IMG/VR virus record: IMGVR_UViG_3300021425_002553
Location: 1-60,661 of that record
Length of the DNA stretch: 60,661 nucleotides
Reading direction: 5' to 3' (one strand)
Source: a virus
Lineage: Duplodnaviria; Caudoviricetes
Part shown: positions 13,414 to 60,661 of the stretch, piece by piece
Numbering within the stretch: position 1 is the first letter of the stretch
Layout of the letters: each line of letters starts with the position of its first letter
The notes under the pieces: generated by a model
What the model saw: the letters and a program-made list of their open reading frames with translations, nothing else
Databases searched by the model: none
What the model was told of the DNA's origin: nothing
Position numbers and translations under genes: made by a program

Positions 13414-13510
13414 TTATGAAAATCCTTGGACTTACATGGAACGAACTTTTGATAGCAGTGATGTTCGGGACTACTTTGGCTTTGTTTATCTCATTACCAA
13501 TAAGTCATAA
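13397..13510 (+). pseudogene. 5' fragment of resident GIY-YIG endonuclease
   Basis: MSTGIDYENPWTY...YFGFVYLITNKS*, truncated immediately after the first GIY-YIG strand. Confidence 0.8.
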
Positions 13511-13532
13511 TAATCCAAAAACTATAATAGAA

Positions 13533-14237
13533 CTAATTAACAATAAAGATTAGTCCTTCCTTTAATTGTTTCTTATATTTTTGGTATCCTATTTTCTTTT
13601 CTTTTAAGTAAGATACAACACTTTCCCAAATATTTTCCCCATCACTCACTCTTACATTTTTTGATGTTGTGAGTGCTTTTTTATGCTCTTCAGTAAGTTT
13701 TTTTCCATACATAGGATTTCCTTCACCTTTATACAGTTTACTAAATTTCTCACGAACTTCTGGTTTATACATTGGATTGTATGATTTGTCTTTCATCTTC
13801 TCACTTCTCATATCACAGAACTTATCGTTTCTCATAACGACTTCATAAATTCCTGCTCTCTCACTCACAAAAAATCTTCCTTCAATATTCGTGTTATAAT
13901 AATCATCAGTCATTAGAACATCTCTTTTAAATTGTTCCATAGTTTCATAATAAGACATTGATTTTTTATGAGGACATATGTAGAGTATTTCTCTCAAAAA
14001 CTTATCTTCACCAAGAAGTTTTACATCTTCATTTAATTCATCGCAAGATCCAAAATATTTTTTCCAATCACTTTCTTTTGTTTTTCTTCTACCAGTCTTT
14101 TTATCTTTTCTCCTTGTCCAAAAAGATTTTTTGCCAATATATTTTCTACCATTTGTTAGGTTTGTTATGAGATAAACAAATCCCTCAATTCCTTTAGGAG
14201 TCTCTATGAATTCGTTTTCGTTATATCTCCAAGACAT
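13533..14237 (-). mobile_element. inserted GIY-YIG (Seg-like) homing endonuclease with NUMOD3-type C-terminus
   Basis: GFVYLITN...KYIGKK; GEGNPMYGKKLTEEHKK; AT-rich, opposite strand; ATG at 14237. Confidence 0.85.
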
Positions 14238-14282
14238 AAAAATACTTTCTACCATAAAAATATTTATAGTGAAAGTATTTTT
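14238..14282 (-). promoter_or_regulatory. start-sequestering hairpin with T4 late promoter in its loop
   Basis: 12-bp perfect inverted repeat AAAAATACTTTC (14238-14249)/GAAAGTATTTTT (14271-14282); minus-strand TATAAATA at 14261-14268. Confidence 0.75.
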
Positions 14283-14300
14283 GAGTATATAAATACTAAT

Positions 14301-14546
14301 GATTGGAAAAAGTACTATGGGTCTTGTCCAGAATTAAAGGAAGACTTTAAGACTGTCAACAATCCCGTATTTTTCAGGAGAGAAATATTATCTCTACATA
14401 GTACAAAGGGAAAGGTTAACTTTGAGGAGACTAGACAGTTGTTCCTCAACGAAGTACTGTCTCAGAAGTTGACAGATGAGACCCCTTTGTACTACAATTC
14501 CAACATCCTTGGACGGTACTACCGTAATGATTATTTTAACGTTTGA
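14301..14546 (+). pseudogene. 3' fragment of resident GIY-YIG endonuclease
   Basis: Open frame DWKKYYGSCPELKEDF...FRREIL...YYNSNILGRYY...*, no canonical start. Confidence 0.8.
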
Positions 14547-15670: not shown

Positions 15671-15744
15671 GGGCAAGTAGTTCAGTGGATCAGAACAGCG
15701 CACTTCTAATGCGTTGGTCGGGGGTTCGAATCCCTCCTTGCCTG
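15671..15744 (+). tRNA. tRNA-Arg(TCT)
   Basis: Cloverleaf; anticodon arm GCGCA-CT TCT AA-TGCGT; GGTTCGAATCC. Confidence 0.93.
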
Positions 15745-15769
15745 TTGGTTCAATAGAACCATAAAACGA

Positions 15770-15841
15770 GCCAGTGTAGCTCAGGGGTAGAGCAGGATAC
15801 TTGTAATATTCAGGTCGGGCGTTCAAATCGTCTCACTGGCT
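15770..15841 (+). tRNA. tRNA-Thr(TGT)
   Basis: Acceptor GCCAGTG/CACTGGC; loop CT TGT AA. Confidence 0.9.
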
Positions 15842-15845
15842 CTAA

Positions 15846-15984
15846 GACGGGGAATGAGTTCGCCCGCGACGGTGCTAACCACACTGTGATCTAGAGAGTT
15901 GGTTACTTTCTTCTTGCTCCATTACAAACTGTCAGAATGTTGGGTTTGAATGCCCCATAGCAAGCATTCGGATAAGTGTAATGT
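15846..15984 (+). ncRNA. candidate structured RNA (kissing loop plus pseudoknot)
   Basis: Several stems; loops CTAACCA and TGGTTA are complementary; CATTACA/TGTAATG closing stem. Confidence 0.55.
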
Positions 15985-15986
15985 TC

Positions 15987-16059
15987 GGGGAATTAGCTCA
16001 GTTGGTAGAGCACCTGCTTTGCAAGCAGGCTGTCAGGAGTTCGAGTCTCCTATTCTCCA
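15987..16059 (+). tRNA. tRNA-Ala(TGC)
   Basis: GGGGAAT/ATTCTCC acceptor; CCTGC-TT TGC AA-GCAGG. Confidence 0.95.
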
Positions 16060-16090
16060 TTCCCGAAAGGGAAATTTAGTGTGTAGGTAA

Positions 16091-16672
16091 ATGATTGATT
16101 CTTTTTCTGATTTTATATACGTTGCTGACGGTGCTCTGGAACCAGAGTTCTGTAAGAATGTTATTGAAAAATTTGAGAAAGATGATAACAGACACCAAGG
16201 TATCATTGCAGGGGGAAGAGTTAACACTTCTATCAAAGATTCTCTTGATATAAACATATCAAGGTATCCTGATTGGAAGGAAGAAGATGAAGTCTTTTTC
16301 AAGTCCCTTAATACTCATCACCGATTGTATATGGATGGTAAGTGGTCTTCCACTCACAACCCAGGCTTAGGTGATTTTACTGATTCTGGATATCAGATAC
16401 AGAGAACTCGTCCTGGCGCTGGATATATTTGGCACCATGATGCAATGTTTGGTGAAACTATTGGTGACCGAGGTGTGAGGTGTACCACTTACATATGGTA
16501 TCTTAATGATATCGATGAAGATGGATATACTGAGTTTATCGATGGTACTAAAGTTCAACCAAAGACTGGAAGGATTTGTATCTTCCCAGCAACTTGGACT
16601 TACATGCACCGTGGATATCCACCAAAGAATCAAACTAAGTATCTTGTAACTGGTTGGATGCACTCTAAATAA
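16091..16672 (+). CDS. 2OG-Fe(II) oxygenase (prolyl-4-hydroxylase-like)
   Basis: WHHD...YLND...YMHRG...KY motif set. Confidence 0.9.
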   Translation: MIDSFSDFIYVADGALEPEFCKNVIEKFEKDDNRHQGIIAGGRVNTSIKDSLDINISRYPDWKEEDEVFFKSLNTHHRLYMDGKWSSTHNPGLGDFTDSGYQIQRTRPGAGYIWHHDAMFGETIGDRGVRCTTYIWYLNDIDEDGYTEFIDGTKVQPKTGRICIFPATWTYMHRGYPPKNQTKYLVTGWMHSK

Positions 16673-16681
16673 AAAACTCGA

Positions 16682-16753
16682 TGGCGTGTAGCTCAACGGC
16701 AGAGCAGGGAGCTGTTAACTCTCTGGTTGCTGGTTCGAATCCAGCCACGCCAG
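16682..16753 (+). tRNA. tRNA-Asn(GTT)
   Basis: TGGCGTG/CACGCCA; GGGAG-CT GTT AA-CTCTC. Confidence 0.93.
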
Positions 16754-16756
16754 CTC

Positions 16757-16828
16757 GCAAGAATAGCTCAGCGGTAGAGCATCTCGTTTACACCGAGGCG
16801 GTCGGGGGTTCGATCCCCTCTTCTTGCA
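16757..16828 (+). tRNA. tRNA-Val(TAC)
   Basis: GCAAGAA/TTCTTGC; loop TT TAC AC. Confidence 0.93.
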
Positions 16829-16851
16829 TGTCTCAATTGCGCACATGAACC

Positions 16852-17100
16852 ATGATTACCGTAAGATGCAAACAGTGTAACAAGGAAATCAGAAGTGACC
16901 ACCACACTCATTGTTGTGGTTGTCCAAACATGATGACAGTAATTGAAGACAAAGTGACAGCCGTTGACCTTTCTAAGGTCGTTATGGTACAATCACAGAA
17001 GGAAACTAAACCAAAAAGTTACCTATCACAATCTGATCTCTCCTTTCAAGAAGAGAGGAGAAAACGTAAGGTCAGAAAATTGGACTTTGATGTTCGTTAA
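16852..17100 (+). CDS. small Cys-rich (Zn-ribbon-like) hypothetical protein
   Basis: CKQC...CCGCPN. Confidence 0.75.
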   Translation: MITVRCKQCNKEIRSDHHTHCCGCPNMMTVIEDKVTAVDLSKVVMVQSQKETKPKSYLSQSDLSFQEERRKRKVRKLDFDVR

Positions 17101-17286
17101 ATGTCACATCGATTCGATGAAATCAAACCTGATCACTACATCACCGAACGTCAGTGTCAGGAGATGATTGATAAGGCAATCGATAAACACAACAAAACTG
17201 CAACCATCATTAGTGCTTGTATAGGAACAGTTCTTCTGTTCTTCTATGCTCAAGGTCTGTTGATTGTGTTGGGGGTTTGGAAATAA
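17101..17286 (+). CDS. small membrane protein
   Basis: C-terminal hydrophobic helix. Confidence 0.7.
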   Translation: MSHRFDEIKPDHYITERQCQEMIDKAIDKHNKTATIISACIGTVLLFFYAQGLLIVLGVWK

Positions 17287-17374
17287 GGAAGATTGGCAGA
17301 GTGGTTGATCGCGTTGGTCTTGAAAACCAATAAGGGTAACACCTTCCAGGGTTCGAATCCCTGATCTTCCGCCA
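17287..17374 (+). tRNA. tRNA-Ser(TGA), CCA encoded
   Basis: Long variable arm; TTGGT-CT TGA AA-ACCAA; ends GCCA. Confidence 0.95.
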
Positions 17375-17448
17375 CGAGAAGTAGCTCAGTTTGGTAGAGC
17401 TCTCGCTTTGGGAGCGAGTGGCCGCAGGTTCGAATCCTGTCTTCTCGA
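17375..17448 (+). tRNA. tRNA-Pro(TGG)
   Basis: CGAGAAG/CTTCTCG; CTCGC-TT TGG GA-GCGAG. Confidence 0.95.
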
Positions 17449-17488
17449 TCGGGTCATCCCCAATAAATAAATCAACCACAAGAAACTG

Positions 17489-17659
17489 ATGGAAGTATTC
17501 TCGGTAGAAGAGTTTCAAGAGAACTGGGACGAGCTTATACAAAGGGTAGAGAACGGGGAAATATTTGGTATAGTAAACGAAAACGGTAACGCGGCAGTGA
17601 TGATGTCCACTGACGATGACCTTTATAAAATGTATACCGACCACAACGAAGCCTCCTAA
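17489..17659 (+). CDS. small protein, Phd/YefM antitoxin-like N-terminus (56 aa)
   Basis: MEVFSVEEFQENWDELIQRVENGEIFGIVNENGNAAVMMS resembles the Phd/YefM pattern; not in ORF track. Confidence 0.5.
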   Translation: MEVFSVEEFQENWDELIQRVENGEIFGIVNENGNAAVMMSTDDDLYKMYTDHNEAS

Positions 17660-17731
17660 GAGACTGTCGCATATTGGTTAATGCTCGCTCCTTATAAGGG
17701 CGCAAACTGGGTTCAATTCCCGACAGTCCCA
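17660..17731 (+). tRNA. tRNA-Ile(TAT)
   Basis: CGCTC-CT TAT AA-GGGCG; single mismatches in acceptor and T stems. Confidence 0.8.
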
Positions 17732-18603: not shown

Positions 18604-18810
18604 GTCACGGATTGACTCTAAAAATGCCCTGGTCGGTAGAAGGTCCCCTTCTTCCCGCGTTTCTTGGTTCGTAAAATCAAGTGGTGGAGTCACTAGACCC
18701 AACTGAGTTTACTAATTCTCCAAAGATTAGTTGGTGCGGATGGAGGAAACTCCCGCCTGAGATTTAGTTATTACTCAGTGATAAAAATAACTTGGCGTGC
18801 ATGGAGCCCA
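18604..18810 (+). ncRNA. manA/wcaG-like structured RNA
   Basis: Non-coding ~205 nt; repeated TGGYG-hairpin-pseudoknot units; lies after tRNAs and upstream of sugar-nucleotide genes, as described for these cyanophage motifs. Confidence 0.6.
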
Positions 18811-53340: not shown

Positions 53341-53444
53341 AATCAGGTTCTCGATTCATCCCTTCTCAAATGGGGACTTGACGGGACCCCTAAAATAGGG
53401 TAACATAAATACATGGACAGGTCAGGACTTCCTGACCGACCGAC

Positions 53445-53546
53445 TCCCCGTAAACCAAGACCTATAGGGAGTATAAACACGTCTTTCATATCCTCGCTAA
53501 GGGTGCGAGGAAATAGTAACTCCACCATTTCCCTGATGGTCTTACT
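53445..53546 (+). ncRNA. PhotoRC-II-like leader RNA of psbA
   Basis: Structured 5' UTR (CCTCGC/GCGAGG and ACCAT/ATGGT hairpins) directly upstream of phage psbA; TTGACG-N17-TAACAT promoter at 53378. Confidence 0.65.
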
Positions 53547-57966: not shown

Positions 57967-59664
57967 TGAAGGACGAACTCTACGACGTTGTAGAAAAAAC
58001 TATAGATTACGTATTCGAAGGTAGATACATGTTGAACATGTATGAATACCTGAAGAGTAGTAAGGTCTCTAGAACGGTCGTAGATGAGTTCCTGATGAGT
58101 TGTACTGCCACTGAGGTAAAGAACCTTGTACTGGACCTTGAGGGGTATCTAGAGGGTGGTAATGACGACATTCACAAACAATTACGTGAGGGTTATGGTC
58201 ATCTTGGTAAACCAGAGGCAAGGAAAATAAAAAATTATCTCATGAAAATTATTGAGGATGCAGAAAGATACCGACATGACAAGAGACCAGGAAGAAAACC
58301 AAGACTCTCTAAATAATGACAATGAATCTCCGAAAATGAATCGGGGGTTTGAATTATTACTCAGAAATAAAAAGAGGAGGACACCACCAAAGACTTTTCA
58401 GATAAGGTTTGGAAAGATGGTCTCCTTCTTTCGAAGAGAGTTCCATTTTTTCTTAGACATTCAGTTTGACATAAGAAAAAAGGAGGGCTAAGATGTTAGC
58501 AGTCACACTTACACTATCTTCGATCATTTCAATCATGTTTCTTTTGGTTGGAGGGGTCATCGGATATCTTTTAAAGGAGTATGTAATCGAGAGGAACTCA
58601 ACACTTATCCCAACACATCCAGAGATGTTTGATGAGAATGGAATGGTCATTCCAGACGACATCCTGGCAGTTAGATTCGAAAACAACCTTGAGGACTTTG
58701 ATTCTGAGGATTGACACCCACAACTAAGTATATTACACTGATACCATGGCAACAAAATCTTTCACCGTGAAAACAAAATTACCACCCAACCCTTTCGTAC
58801 ATGAGATCTTTGAGTTGGTTTCTAAACAGAGATCCAAAGCAAAAAAGGTTGAGGTTCTGAAGGAACAACGGTGTGATGCAATCACCGCTCTTCTCATCTG
58901 GAATTTTGATGACTCTGTAGTTTCTCTCCTTCCGACAGGAGTAGTTCCATACGAGAAAAATGAAGTTCCTGTTGGTACCGACCATACATCCCTTCGTAAA
59001 GAGTGGAAGAATCTTTATCACTTCGTAAAAGGTGGTAATGATAGTCTGTCGAAGACCCGTAGAGAATCCATGTTTATTCAGATTCTTGAGGGTCTTCATC
59101 CCCATGAGGCTGACATCCTGTGTCTTGTAAAAGATAAAGCACTCACATCAAGATTTAAAATTTCAAAAGAAGTTGTTTCAGAAGCATTCCCCGACATTCA
59201 GTGGGGTGGTCGGTCTTGAGTAAAGATATTAAATTCATTCACCAGGATTGTGATCCCTCTCTAGCGGACGACAAGACTCTTCCTTATTCTGCATATCTGG
59301 TTGAGTATCTTCAGGATGGTATGACCAAGTTTGATATTGTATCTGCTGCAAAACAAGTTGATATCTTTGATCATTATTGGGATAATTATCGTCATGATTT
59401 CAAAAACATGACACAGACAGAGGGTAGAATCAATCCAAAACTTTGGGGTAATTCAGAAAAGAAAAAGAAATGAGTAAAGGATTTGATGTGAATTTTGAAG
59501 GGATTGATATGGACCCAGATATGGTTCAGTCAATTCTCAAAAAATATAAAAAAATTAAGAAGTATCAAAGGTCAAACATCTTCGAGGTCAAGACGATGGA
59601 TGGTAAAGAGGACATCGTTTCTGAGATGATAAAGGAAGGTGAAGAATACGGTCCACTTGACTAA
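57966..59664 (+). CDS. operon of hypothetical proteins (57966-58316, 58336-58491, 58493-58714, 58746-59219, 59216-59473, 59470-59664)
   Basis: Tightly packed + strand ORFs; 58746 ORF carries RESMFIQILEGLHPHEA, a pattern seen in T4-like phages. Confidence 0.7.
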
Positions 59665-59685
59665 ATACTTGTAATGGTCTATACT
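59657..59685 (+). promoter_or_regulatory. sigma70-type promoter of the riboswitch locus
   Basis: TTGACT-N17-TATACT. Confidence 0.75.
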
Positions 59686-59691
59686 AGACCT

Positions 59692-59735
59692 ACGTTCAAC
59701 CCACTTCGGTGGGTCGCAAGTAAGTCGCGGAACGG
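59692..59735 (+). ncRNA. glnA RNA motif (glutamine riboswitch), aptamer 1
   Basis: CGTTC...GAACG P1; ACCCAC-TTCG-GTGGGT P2; CGCAAGTAAG junction. Confidence 0.8.
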
Positions 59736-59751
59736 AGCGTTAGCAATTAGA

Positions 59752-60324
59752 ATGATTTATTACACTTACTACTCTTACGAACCCTTTGGGCGAGGCTACA
59801 TTGGTAGCAGAAGATGTGAGTGTAATCCAGTGGAGGATGATTATTTTGGTTCCTATGGAGACAAAACATTTAATCCTTCTTGTAAAATCATTCTTACCGA
59901 ACATGCTACGAGAGAAGATGCAGTTGAAGCAGAAGTAAAACTCCATGAGTTTTATAAAGTTGATACTAATTCTCACTTTGCTAATAGGGCAAAGCAAACA
60001 TCTTCTTCATTTTCTTTCTGTTCACAGGGAGAACGAATTGGTGGAGGCAATCCCTGTTTTGGTAAAGTTCGTGTTACTGACGGTAAAAATGAACGAGTAG
60101 TTTATGAAGATGACATTCCTTCTGGGTGGTGGAAAGGTAGAAGTCGTAATCCAAAAGAATACGCTACTACTAAATCCATAACATGTACCAGAGGTAAAAT
60201 GTATGATGACTTTCTAAAAGATGTAAGTAAAGATGAATCTATTTTATCTTTACCTATTAGAAAACTTGCAGAAATTTATCAAACATCTCATACTTCTATT
60301 CGTCGCTGGAAAAAATCAATCTAA
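59752..60324 (+). mobile_element. GIY-YIG (Seg-like) homing endonuclease
   Basis: YYTYYSYE..GRGYIGSR..YFGS...EAE...FANRAK; HTH-like C-terminus; AT-rich. Confidence 0.82.
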
Positions 60325-60511
60325 TCGTTCATCCCATGGTAGAATTATTACTCTACACAACGCTGGCATGTCAGGACGCTGATGCTATAATCTTTCGGAT
60401 TAAAAAGCATGAGGGTCTGAAGCCAGAGTACAAGTTAGAGTTGGTAGAGACTATTAAAGATTCTGTACCACATTGTAATCACTACTGGGACGCAAACGAC
60501 TAAAGGAACGG
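60325..60511 (+). ncRNA. glnA-like aptamer 2 with expanded P2 loop
   Basis: CGTTCATCCC...GGGACGCAAACGACTAAAGGAACG. Confidence 0.6.
60336..60503 (+). CDS. 55-aa hypothetical protein inside aptamer 2
   Basis: MVELLLYTTLACQDADAIIFRIKK...HCNHYWDAND*; not in ORF track. Confidence 0.65.
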   Translation: MVELLLYTTLACQDADAIIFRIKKHEGLKPEYKLELVETIKDSVPHCNHYWDAND

Positions 60512-60545
60512 GCCTAAAAATCCAACTACTTTAGGAGTAAGACAA

Positions 60546-60661
60546 ATGAACACCTTAAATCTCATCAAGAAGCAAATCGAGAAGGCATCTGCTCTTCACG
60601 ATGCGCAAATTGCTAACACTGCATATCGTGGTGTTGAGTATACCTGCAAGCAGGATGGTGA
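60546..60661 (+). CDS. DUF4278-like protein (partial)
   Basis: AGGAG RBS; TAYRGVEY motif; this family is typically found downstream of glutamine riboswitches. Confidence 0.7.
   Translation, partial: MNTLNLIKKQIEKASALHDAQIANTAYRGVEYTCKQDG

Follow-up and report, generated by a model that had tools for sequence, protein, structure and literature searches.

A Homing-Endonuclease-Like Gene Lineage Lodged at the Joint Between the Two Cores of Cyanophage Glutamine Riboswitches

The IMG/VR virus record IMGVR_UViG_3300021425_002553, a fragment of a T4-like cyanophage, carries near its end a glutamine riboswitch in which a 190-codon gene is located exactly between the two aptamer cores. This gene probably represents a lineage of free-standing, Seg-like homing endonucleases that has its home in the 3-5-base joint between the cores of cyanophage glutamine riboswitches. 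The complete record of 60,661 nucleotides (nt) was analyzed and is referred to as the window. Its nearest DNA relatives are T4-like Synechococcus phages (423 matching records, of which 349 are named Synechococcus phage). An earlier reading of the window, made from the letters alone (the sequence-only reading), had proposed that a free-standing endonuclease gene was inserted between tandem glutamine aptamers, and an endonuclease-like, free-standing gene is indeed present between the two cores. The promoter, the first aptamer, the GAGCGTT following it, the start and stop codons of the gene and the sequence after the stop were all found where that reading had placed them. The features of the locus, all on the plus strand, are as follows.

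59657..59685, +, sigma-70-type promoter (TTGACT at 59657-59662, 17-nt spacer, TATACT at 59680-59685)
59693..59735, +, glutamine aptamer core 1, assigned from Rfam model alignments, the fold and relatives
59693-59697, +, P1 5' strand CGTTC of core 1 (the aptamer begins CGTTCA at 59693)
59699-59714, +, hairpin ACCCAC-TTCG-GTGGGT of core 1
between this hairpin and the P1 3' strand, +, junction core GCAAGTAAGTCGCG / CGCAAGTAAGTCGCG of core 1
59730-59734, +, P1 3' strand GAACG of core 1
3' of aptamer 1, +, GAGCGTT, with CGTT at 59738-59741
59738..60325, +, 588-nt stretch absent from the empty allele GGAACGGAG / CGTTCATCCC
59752..60324, +, free-standing homing-endonuclease-like gene of 190 codons, assigned from phrog_314, structure models and same-site relatives
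60325-60335, +, TCGTTCATCCC after the nuclease stop codon, with CGTT at 60326-60329
60326..60335, +, 5' half of core 2 (P1 CGTTC, A, and hairpin strand TCCC running into the ATG of the nested gene)
60336..60503, +, nested 55-codon open reading frame (ORF) in the hairpin loop of core 2, assigned from phrog_504, alignment and loop lengths
60487..60511, +, 3' half of core 2, GGGACGCAAACGACTAAAGGAACGG (GGGA closing the hairpin, core CGCAAACGACTAAAG, P1 3' strand GAACG at 60506-60510)
60532-60537, +, Shine-Dalgarno sequence TAGGAG
60546 (ATG) to 60661, +, start of the regulated gene (MNTLN...AYRGVEY), truncated at the end of the record

Besides the nuclease gene, the insert contains a leader of 14 nt and one further base. 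Its boundaries are ambiguous by 4 nt, and 59742-60329 would be equally valid. No intron was found at the nuclease locus with cmscan; the only gaps are the 16 nt between aptamer 1 and the ATG and the 1 nt past the stop codon. The gene, which had been called AT-rich, is so only mildly, with a guanine-plus-cytosine content of 35.6% vs. 40.8% for the window. An in-frame ATG at 59674 opens a 216-codon ORF (59674-60324) that would traverse aptamer core 1, and at least one relative is annotated in the databases from the upstream ATG (P0003, 213 residues). Alignment with relatives favors a start at 59752 rather than at 59674.

Deletion of the insert predicts the sequence GGAACGGAGCGTTCATCCC. This predicted empty site exists in nature and is the commonest allele among relatives: the 19-mer was found in 30 of 80 IMG/VR loci (L006-L085), which had been collected by anchoring on the DUF4278-like gene that follows the riboswitch, and in at least 120 IMG/VR contigs. 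Empty junctions could be parsed at 68 loci, i.e., at 66 of these 80 and in the isolates S-B05 (L004) and S-CAM4 (L005). Twelve distinct junction sequences were seen overall, and 31 of the 68 read exactly ...GGAACGGAGCGTTCATCC. The joint was always short in the empty alleles (3-5 nt), whilst it measures 587-591 nt in the filled alleles of the window, of the isolates RB11-B (L002) and Sf-CH5 (L003), and of L026. The filled allele is the minority state, present in only one of the 80 anchored loci, and the flanks of the joint are near-invariant across ~40 nt. Hence, the locus displays presence/absence polymorphism with a base-precise empty site, as is expected of a free-standing homing endonuclease gene.

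Insertion left the second aptamer with its closing strand, as had been proposed: in all 38 filled alleles that could be checked, aptamer 2 retains an intact 5' strand. The sequence TCGTTCA at the right junction is invariant save for a paired C-to-G variant, which is discussed below. The left junction is less constant. GAGCGTT precedes the leader in the window and in Sf-CH5, but the position of the left CGTT is occupied by CGTA in RB11-B, CGTC in L091, CTTT in L098 and CGAA in L115, and the seven left-junction bases are absent in L026, L093-L097 and L106-L111, which places a GGAG 7 nt 5' of the ATG. The sequence-only reading had drawn attention to a CGTT repeated at both ends of the insert and had suggested that the extra copy competes for the 3' strand of P1. 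As the left copy varies or is missing, the repeat is not a conserved property of the insert, a role as functional repeat or target-site duplication was rejected, and there is no support for a competitor of P1. Most simply, the left CGTT would be a decaying remnant or an alignment ambiguity that is not under selection.

Every full-length relative that could be checked occupies this one position. The 80 best IMG/VR relatives of the nuclease protein were inspected, the first 40 of which (L087-L126) match it over its full length with 51-95% amino-acid identity; L093 and L026 represent one and the same contig. In all 38 full-length relatives with upstream sequence, the 3' end of aptamer 1 lies 7-16 nt before the start codon, and in all 38 with a complete ORF, the CGTT[CG]A of core 2 is found at or in the end of the ORF, i.e., 1 nt past the stop codon in 27 loci and within the last 20-56 nt of the ORF in 11. 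The two remaining relatives in each count are at contig ends. The other 40 relatives share residues 3 to ~90-130 only. Aptamer halves were found near none of these 40, and many of them are preceded by a TATAAATA motif. Among isolates, five records contain the full-length gene with 93.7% identity, i.e., S-H68, RN05-S, RB11-B, S-B43 and Sf-CH5.

In the 11 distant members with the overlapping arrangement, the nuclease ORF lacks its own stop codon and runs into or through a compact core 2, terminating at or close to the 3' core of the aptamer. In these loci (L116-L126), the aptamer encodes the last residues of the nuclease (e.g., SRSFIRYSQI...; an example is L119:1201-1800), and in several of them, such as L116, L119, L123 and L124, the ORF ends at GAC TGA, as nested small ORFs do in several relatives.

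Phage S-PM2 also contains a relative. It consists of the N-terminal domain only (49.6% identity over residues 1-114) and is located directly downstream of F-CphI, so that two nuclease-type genes are found between psbA and psbD (L086, NC_006820.1 137109-137738). A relationship of the window's nuclease with F-CphI itself was considered and rejected, since the match falls in the adjoining ORF S-PM2p181.

Comparison of the gene with its surroundings supports recent horizontal spread. Between the window and L002, L003, L026, L087, L088 and L091, the DNA of the gene is 96.2-97.0% identical. At the same loci, identity is 71-86% in the aptamer-1 leader and 71-82% in the downstream stretch, and the nested ORF either reaches 65-73% or cannot be aligned. 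The backgrounds differ in content as well: Sf-CH5 has different upstream genes and a core 1 that encloses an ORF, and core 2 of RB11-B nests a different ORF, of 65 codons. The clearest pair is formed by RB11-B, which is filled, and S-B05, which is empty. Both were isolated on Synechococcus sp. MW02, and they are 99.2% identical over 1095 nt upstream and 99-100% identical over 950 nt downstream. They differ only in a replaced segment, made up of the cassette and the core-1 hairpin, the loop of which is 12 nt in RB11-B and 45 nt in S-B05. This difference appears to be the pattern expected of gene conversion with a short co-converted tract upstream. A gene that is more conserved than its flanks and that is accompanied by co-converted flanking markers is typical of homing endonuclease genes.

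The protein itself is assigned to the endonucleases by several lines of evidence. In the PHROGs database, it matches phrog_314, "homing endonuclease", with an expectation value (E) of 2.4e-8. Residues ~1-82 are Seg-like or GIY-YIG-like, whilst residues ~150-190 are helical with the look of a helix-turn-helix, and the C-terminal part matches helix-turn-helix domains weakly (E > 1). In relatives, the same N-terminal domain is fused to NUMOD3 nuclease-associated DNA-binding modules. The AlphaFold models have predicted local distance difference test scores of 83.1 for the whole protein and of 88.7 for residues 1-86. In the N-terminal part, strands occupy residues 2-9, 15-22 and 44-51, with a short helix before the third strand and a long one (54-67) after it, so that the catalytic-domain fold, a three-stranded sheet with flanking helices, is present in the predicted model. 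When the model was compared with the predicted structures of BFVD by Foldseek, the matches following the protein's own family bore the names homing endonuclease, GIY-YIG domain-containing, Seg-like and group I intron endonuclease, with template-modeling scores of 0.65-0.80, normalized to query length, and E values of 1e-3 to 3e-2. Among the protein Atlas clusters with a Pfam family, the best were GIY-YIG, SegE_GIY-YIG and LEM-3_GIY-YIG, scoring 0.93-0.95, whilst no common family is attached to the cluster ranked first (0.96).

GIY-YIG nucleases are recognized by two short motifs on a beta hairpin, a GIY-like one and then YIG, spaced by ~10-11 residues, and by conserved Arg, Glu and Asn residues further along the chain. 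The candidate region of the nuclease reads IYYTYYSYEPFGRGYIGSR, and some of its residues may be equivalent to the catalytic ones of I-TevI. In 45 relatives, Y4, Y6, Y7, Y9, Y16, G18, E61, H65, N73 and N78 are invariant, and I17 and R20 nearly so. We conclude that, as far as predicted structure goes, the N-terminal domain folds like the GIY-YIG domain of Seg-like proteins. The assignment to the GIY-YIG class, as made previously, is thereby favored by the predicted fold and by language-model features, but it is not accompanied by a match to Pfam or to PDB sequences, as detailed below.

The riboswitch into which the gene is inserted was recognized as follows. The promoter agrees with 10 of 12 consensus positions, and its -35 hexamer overlaps the stop codon of an upstream 64-codon gene. 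The promoter scan alone is weak evidence, because seven promoter-like sites were found in the region vs. 3.7 +/- 2.2 in shuffled sequence. TTGAC(T/A)...TATAAT is likewise present 5' of the aptamer in L002-L005, L009 and L016. In a local cmscan of 59600-60661, core 1 was matched on 59690-59741 by two Rfam models, i.e., Glutamine-II (RF01704; 26.1 bits, E 4.4e-4) and Glutamine (RF01739; 25.1 bits, E 7.1e-3). Both scores are under the gathering scores of 33 and 35, respectively, and a scan of the whole window at gathering thresholds gave no Rfam match at core 1. Thus, the glnA-model match proposed as a check is sub-threshold in the window itself, but the orthologous aptamer 5' of the same gene reaches the cut-off of 35 for RF01739 in L113 (38.1 bits), L115 (35.8 bits) and L123 (36.1 bits); the orthologues in L119 (30.1 bits) and L125 (31.1 bits) are under it. 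In the alignments with both models, the P1 helix CGUUC/GAACG, the adjoining hairpin and the conserved junction core are all present in core 1. The minimum-energy fold of 59688-59775 calculated with ViennaRNA forms P1 and the hairpin; as its z-score of only -0.49 is unremarkable, the case for core 1 rests on relatives and not on fold energy. The first pair of the hairpin is A-U in the window vs. U-A in relatives. As a separate observation, core 1 encloses a ~66-codon ORF in Sf-CH5 (L003:988-1222), L006, L014, L047, L048, L053, L062, L079 and L084, with the start codon inside the closing stem UCUCAUG/CAUGAGA.

The second aptamer was expected to follow directly after the nuclease stop codon. This is correct for its 5' half only. 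CGTTCATCCC continues without a gap into the ATG at 60336, and the 3' half is located beyond the nested 55-codon ORF; core 2 is not compact, and its hairpin encloses this ORF. The nested ORF matches phrog_504 (2.9e-25), and its final codons (WDAND, stop) double as the 3' core of core 2. In the 80 anchored loci, the typical layout is a compact core 1, a joint of 3-5 nt, and a core 2 with a loop of 150-160 nt, the lengths of which mostly differ by multiples of 3 (151, 154, 157, 160). In L009, L012 and L016, both cores are compact, and the same 3' half of core 2 follows a 12-nt hairpin. Since a recognizable compact core 2 exists in these loci, the nested ORF is a loop insertion into the aptamer. 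Positions 1-3 of the closing stem were paired in all 63 distinct expanded aptamers, a set that includes several mis-parsed ones. The apparent expanded single aptamers of L010, L018, L044, L056, L065, L008, L013, L041 and L057 are regular-expression artefacts at loci with CAACG/CGTTG as variant strands or, in the case of L010, with a deletion. A second hairpin of the Downstream-peptide type (CGC...GCG around GGAACGGA) was also considered and was rejected because alleles with GAGC, GAT or GTTC linkers disrupt the pairing. The gene after the riboswitch is DUF4278-like and resembles the glutamine synthetase inactivating factor IF17; its full-length, 55-residue orthologues score 20.6 and 22.0 bits with DUF4278 (PF14105), for which the cut-off is 25.3.

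How the two cores are related has consequences for the way in which the RNA could accommodate an insert. At the 106 loci parsed, GAACG in core 1 was combined with CGTTC in core 2 in 92 cases and CAACG with CGTTG in 14, and no mixed combinations were found; a single row in which core 1 has CGTTG for its 5' strand is probably a parsing artefact. The loci with the paired G/C swap are L008, L013, L018, L041, L044, L056, L057, L065 and L100-L105. In the eight empty ones, the outer strands (CGTTC in core 1 and GAACG in core 2) are unaltered, and in the other six (L100-L105), the nuclease gene lies between the swapped strands. The swap creates mismatches in both P1 helices of a simple tandem and preserves a helix between the inner strands; an inter-core helix is therefore favored. 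The swap may be a single evolutionary event in all 14 loci, for the eight empty variants have only four distinct junction sequences. In L009 and L016, an above-cut-off match to RF01739 covers both cores over 92-101 nt. On balance, it is more likely than not that the joint is the 3-5-nt loop of a helix in which the two inner P1 strands, GAACG in core 1 and CGTTC in core 2, pair with each other. The proposal that removal of the insert yields a seamless tandem aptamer is correct in that the two cores abut, but they may interlock rather than stand in tandem.

With respect to expression, a scan revealed no promoter-like site in the leader between core 1 and the nuclease start and no terminator-like site from the riboswitch promoter to the end of the window. 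The scan did list one promoter-like site within the gene (60178-60207) and another within the nested ORF (60363-60391). Because the leader lacks a promoter-like site and the start codon is only 7-16 nt after core 1, the gene is probably transcribed from the riboswitch promoter. Contigs from RNA libraries are available as well. Record 1 of library X15 spans core 1 into the gene (59715-59942), records 10 and 12 of X16 overlap this stretch, and record 21 of X19, an 877-nt contig of a relative with a leader shorter by 7 nt, runs from core 1 through the cassette to the nested ORF, covering 59715-60361 with aptamer-1 letters ahead of the match. These contigs are a weak hint that aptamer 1, nuclease and nested ORF are co-transcribed, since they could derive from contaminating DNA, are strandless, and give no expression level. 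The gaps in the RNA runs at 59600-59707 and 60392-60463 are not evidence of anything.

Metatranscriptome contigs pile up at 59708-59743, the 3' half of core 1, with a summed word depth of ~44,000 in X15 and 1,200 in X16. This depth stems from the conserved core of many phages and is uninformative on the nuclease gene. In several of the contigs, the 3' half of core 1 is joined straight to a core 2 of the compact kind, so that compact leaders with an empty joint, from related phages or hosts, seem to be plentiful in these two libraries.

A homing cycle can be envisaged from these data. The enzyme would recognize the near-invariant riboswitch DNA (...GTCGCGGAACGGAG/CGTTCATCCCATG) in phages without the gene and would cut at or near the joint during co-infection, after which the cassette would be copied in by repair. 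Insertion would split the recognition site and thereby protect the carrier. The RNA would cope with the insert if the joint serves as a linker or, as is more likely, forms the loop of the inter-core helix; that helix could then still close around ~590 nt, in the way that nested ORFs are accommodated in the other hairpins of this RNA. The riboswitch promoter would probably drive the nuclease gene, and glutamine may gate translation of the nuclease.

Several observations weigh against a homing endonuclease with its target at the joint. First, the nuclease protein matched no Pfam family at E <= 1, the GIY-YIG models of Pfam did not match any of 37 family members, and neither a phmmer search nor a profile search of PDB sequences gave a match. 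No curated model, i.e., PF01541 (GIY-YIG) or PF19835 (SegE_GIY-YIG), matched either; in a six-frame search of the window with both, the 190-codon gene was not found and only another gene, at 13533-14255, was. A search of NCBIfam with the protein gave nothing, and comparison by hhalign of the family profile with the SegE-type gene of the window itself gave a probability of 2.9%. Foldseek searches of the PDB with the full model and with the N-terminal domain produced no match at E <= 0.001; the best relevant row was 1zg2 (E 1.4-2.2), which we take to be a GIY-YIG-type domain. Second, Seg-type enzymes may act some way from their own genes, so that the recognition site at the joint is a predicted one. 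Third, every completely sequenced copy of the gene in the sample is intact, divergence within the lineage at a single site extends down to 51% identity, and at 11 loci the ORF reads through core 2; a gene that has long been resident and is partly domesticated would fit these facts as well. The limits of the RNA contigs and the possibly single origin of the swap, mentioned above, belong in the same list.

Of the alternatives, the most durable one is that the protein is a homing endonuclease that cuts elsewhere nearby, e.g., in the DUF4278-like gene or the upstream gene, and uses the joint as a harmless perch. Precedents exist in the Seg and Mob enzymes of phage T4, which cut away from their own genes, and the upstream neighbors of the carriers differ, those of Sf-CH5 being quite different. 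However, the riboswitch is the sole sequence that all 38 checked carriers have in common, whereas they vary in their upstream genes, in their nested ORFs and even in the kind of core 2 present, and the near-invariant flanks of the joint are well suited as a recognition site. We consider cleavage elsewhere unlikely.

A little less likely still is a resident, domesticated gene that belongs to a glutamine-regulated operon, acts, e.g., against competing phages or host DNA, and does not home, its patchy distribution being the result of ordinary recombination. Its age at the site (51-95% identity, always in the same joint), the intactness of every complete copy, the fusion of the ORF into core 2 at 11 loci, where it ends at the aptamer's own stop codon, and the position of the start codon closely behind core 1, with GGAG before the ATG in several alleles, are all in line with such a role. 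They have to be set against the 96-97% DNA identity of the gene across backgrounds with flanks of 65-86% identity, against the recent gain or loss in the pair RB11-B and S-B05, which is confined to the cassette and a short co-converted tract, and against the low occupancy, with one filled allele in the 80 anchored loci and five isolate records with a full-length copy of >90% identity.

That the ORF encodes a small DNA-binding or regulatory protein rather than a nuclease is improbable. The lack of a curated family model and the helix-turn-helix likeness of the C-terminal part, itself weak, would fit, but the match to phrog_314, the fold matches to Seg-like and GIY-YIG phage proteins, the GIY-YIG Atlas clusters, and the NUMOD3 modules joined to the same N-terminal domain in relatives contradict it. 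Finally, an ancestral filled state from which the empty alleles arose by deletion is very improbable, since it has nothing specific in its favor beyond the 7-nt left-junction deletions, which show that small deletions happen, and would require repeated base-precise deletion that left a 3-5-nt joint and two intact cores at all 68 empty loci, whilst the near-identity of the gene across diverged backgrounds contradicts vertical descent.

A homing endonuclease at home in the joint therefore remains the preferred interpretation. It could be extended, tentatively and with considerable doubt, to the notion of the riboswitch as a platform, the helix loops of which serve as landing pads for genes: small ORFs would occupy the two hairpins, and the nuclease lineage would occupy the loop of the helix that joins the cores. 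The nuclease would then be transcribed from no promoter but that of the riboswitch and translated from its start codon 7-16 nt behind core 1, and it would be made only when host glutamine switches the RNA, and its production would be tied to the glutamine sensor, so that homing is timed to the nitrogen status of the host.

SegA-G are free-standing GIY-YIG homing endonucleases of T4-type phages, and I-TevI is the intron-encoded counterpart. Like these, the protein described here is small and has two domains, with a predicted Seg-like fold at the N terminus, a linker and a C-terminal DNA-binding part, and, like the seg genes, its gene is free-standing, without intron or intein, is present or absent in related phages, and has a flank that is apparently co-converted. 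Unlike SegA-G, it has no match to the GIY-YIG or SegE models of Pfam. Its home also differs from those of the seg genes, being riboswitch DNA instead of a gap between protein genes or the interior of one, with a whole lineage at one site. There is, moreover, a likeness to the group I intron homing genes in ribosomal RNA (rRNA) and transfer RNA (tRNA) genes, where a mobile nuclease exploits DNA that is constrained by the fold of its RNA, and the RNA can still function. In contrast to those, no ribozyme excises the insert; the RNA presumably closes a helix around it or leaves it as a linker.

F-CphI of S-PM2 is a free-standing endonuclease that targets the insertion site of the psbA intron (PMC6083498). 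It resembles the present case as a free-standing homing endonuclease of a T4-like cyanophage with a highly conserved target, but it uses an Endo VII motif (PMC6083498). The glnA RNA (RF01739) and the Downstream-peptide or Glutamine-II RNA (RF01704) sometimes occur in tandem and precede DUF4278/IF17-like genes (PMC2864571; PMC6212724). In cyanobacteria, binding of glutamine turns on translation of the DUF4278/IF17 gene (PMC6212724), and glnA RNAs have already been listed for cyanophages (PMC9964418). The riboswitch of the window shares with these RNAs the P1 helix CGUUC/GAACG, the hairpin, a core of the CGCAAGUA type, and the order of two cores followed by a DUF4278-like gene. Unlike them, its cores are separated by 588 nt containing a gene, core 2 encloses an ORF, and core 1 scores under both Rfam cut-offs; the paired G/C swap, in addition, points to pairing between the two cores. 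In the available parts of PMC2864571 and PMC6212724, tandem glutamine riboswitches are presented with no mention of an inserted gene or of phages, and the word "phage" is absent from the available text of PMC6212724. An endonuclease in a glutamine riboswitch is likewise not described in the available parts of PMC9964418, PMC10690425, PMC2864571, PMC6212724, PMC12379486, PMC9004378 and PMC6083498. No description of such a gene was thus found in the literature searched, whilst Table S7 of PMC9964418 and Table S1 of PMC6212724 could list one. What appears new is the home site: a known kind of element, the free-standing Seg-like homing endonuclease, is found in a riboswitch.

Were the lineage as faithful to the riboswitch as it appears, it would add a class of targets that is conserved for the sensing of a ligand. 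Homing endonucleases maintain themselves by choosing target DNA that is not free to vary; the known targets are codons of active sites and rRNA or tRNA genes. The arrangement also constitutes a natural map of the positions at which an RNA tolerates hundreds of extra bases. If the joint is truly the loop of an inter-core helix, insertion and paired swap would offer a direct handle on the interaction between the cores. RB11-B and S-B05, which grow on the same host strain and are near-isogenic at the site, are a ready system for the study of homing and of metabolite control of a selfish gene.

The window contains a second, unrelated homing-endonuclease locus at 13427-14507, just upstream of an array of tRNA genes. 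It comprises a 240-codon SegE-type GIY-YIG gene on the minus strand (13533-14255; 133.5 bits with PF19835). On either side of it lies a plus-strand fragment resembling SegE, one at 14283-14507 (84.3 bits) and the other, interrupted by a TAA, at 13427-13510 (25.4 bits). The array consists of eight tRNA genes at 15671-17731, all of which score over the Rfam cut-offs. Two further RNAs over their cut-offs are a wcaG RNA at 18703-18806 (62.1 bits) and a PhotoRC-II RNA at 53433-53524 (73.5 bits).

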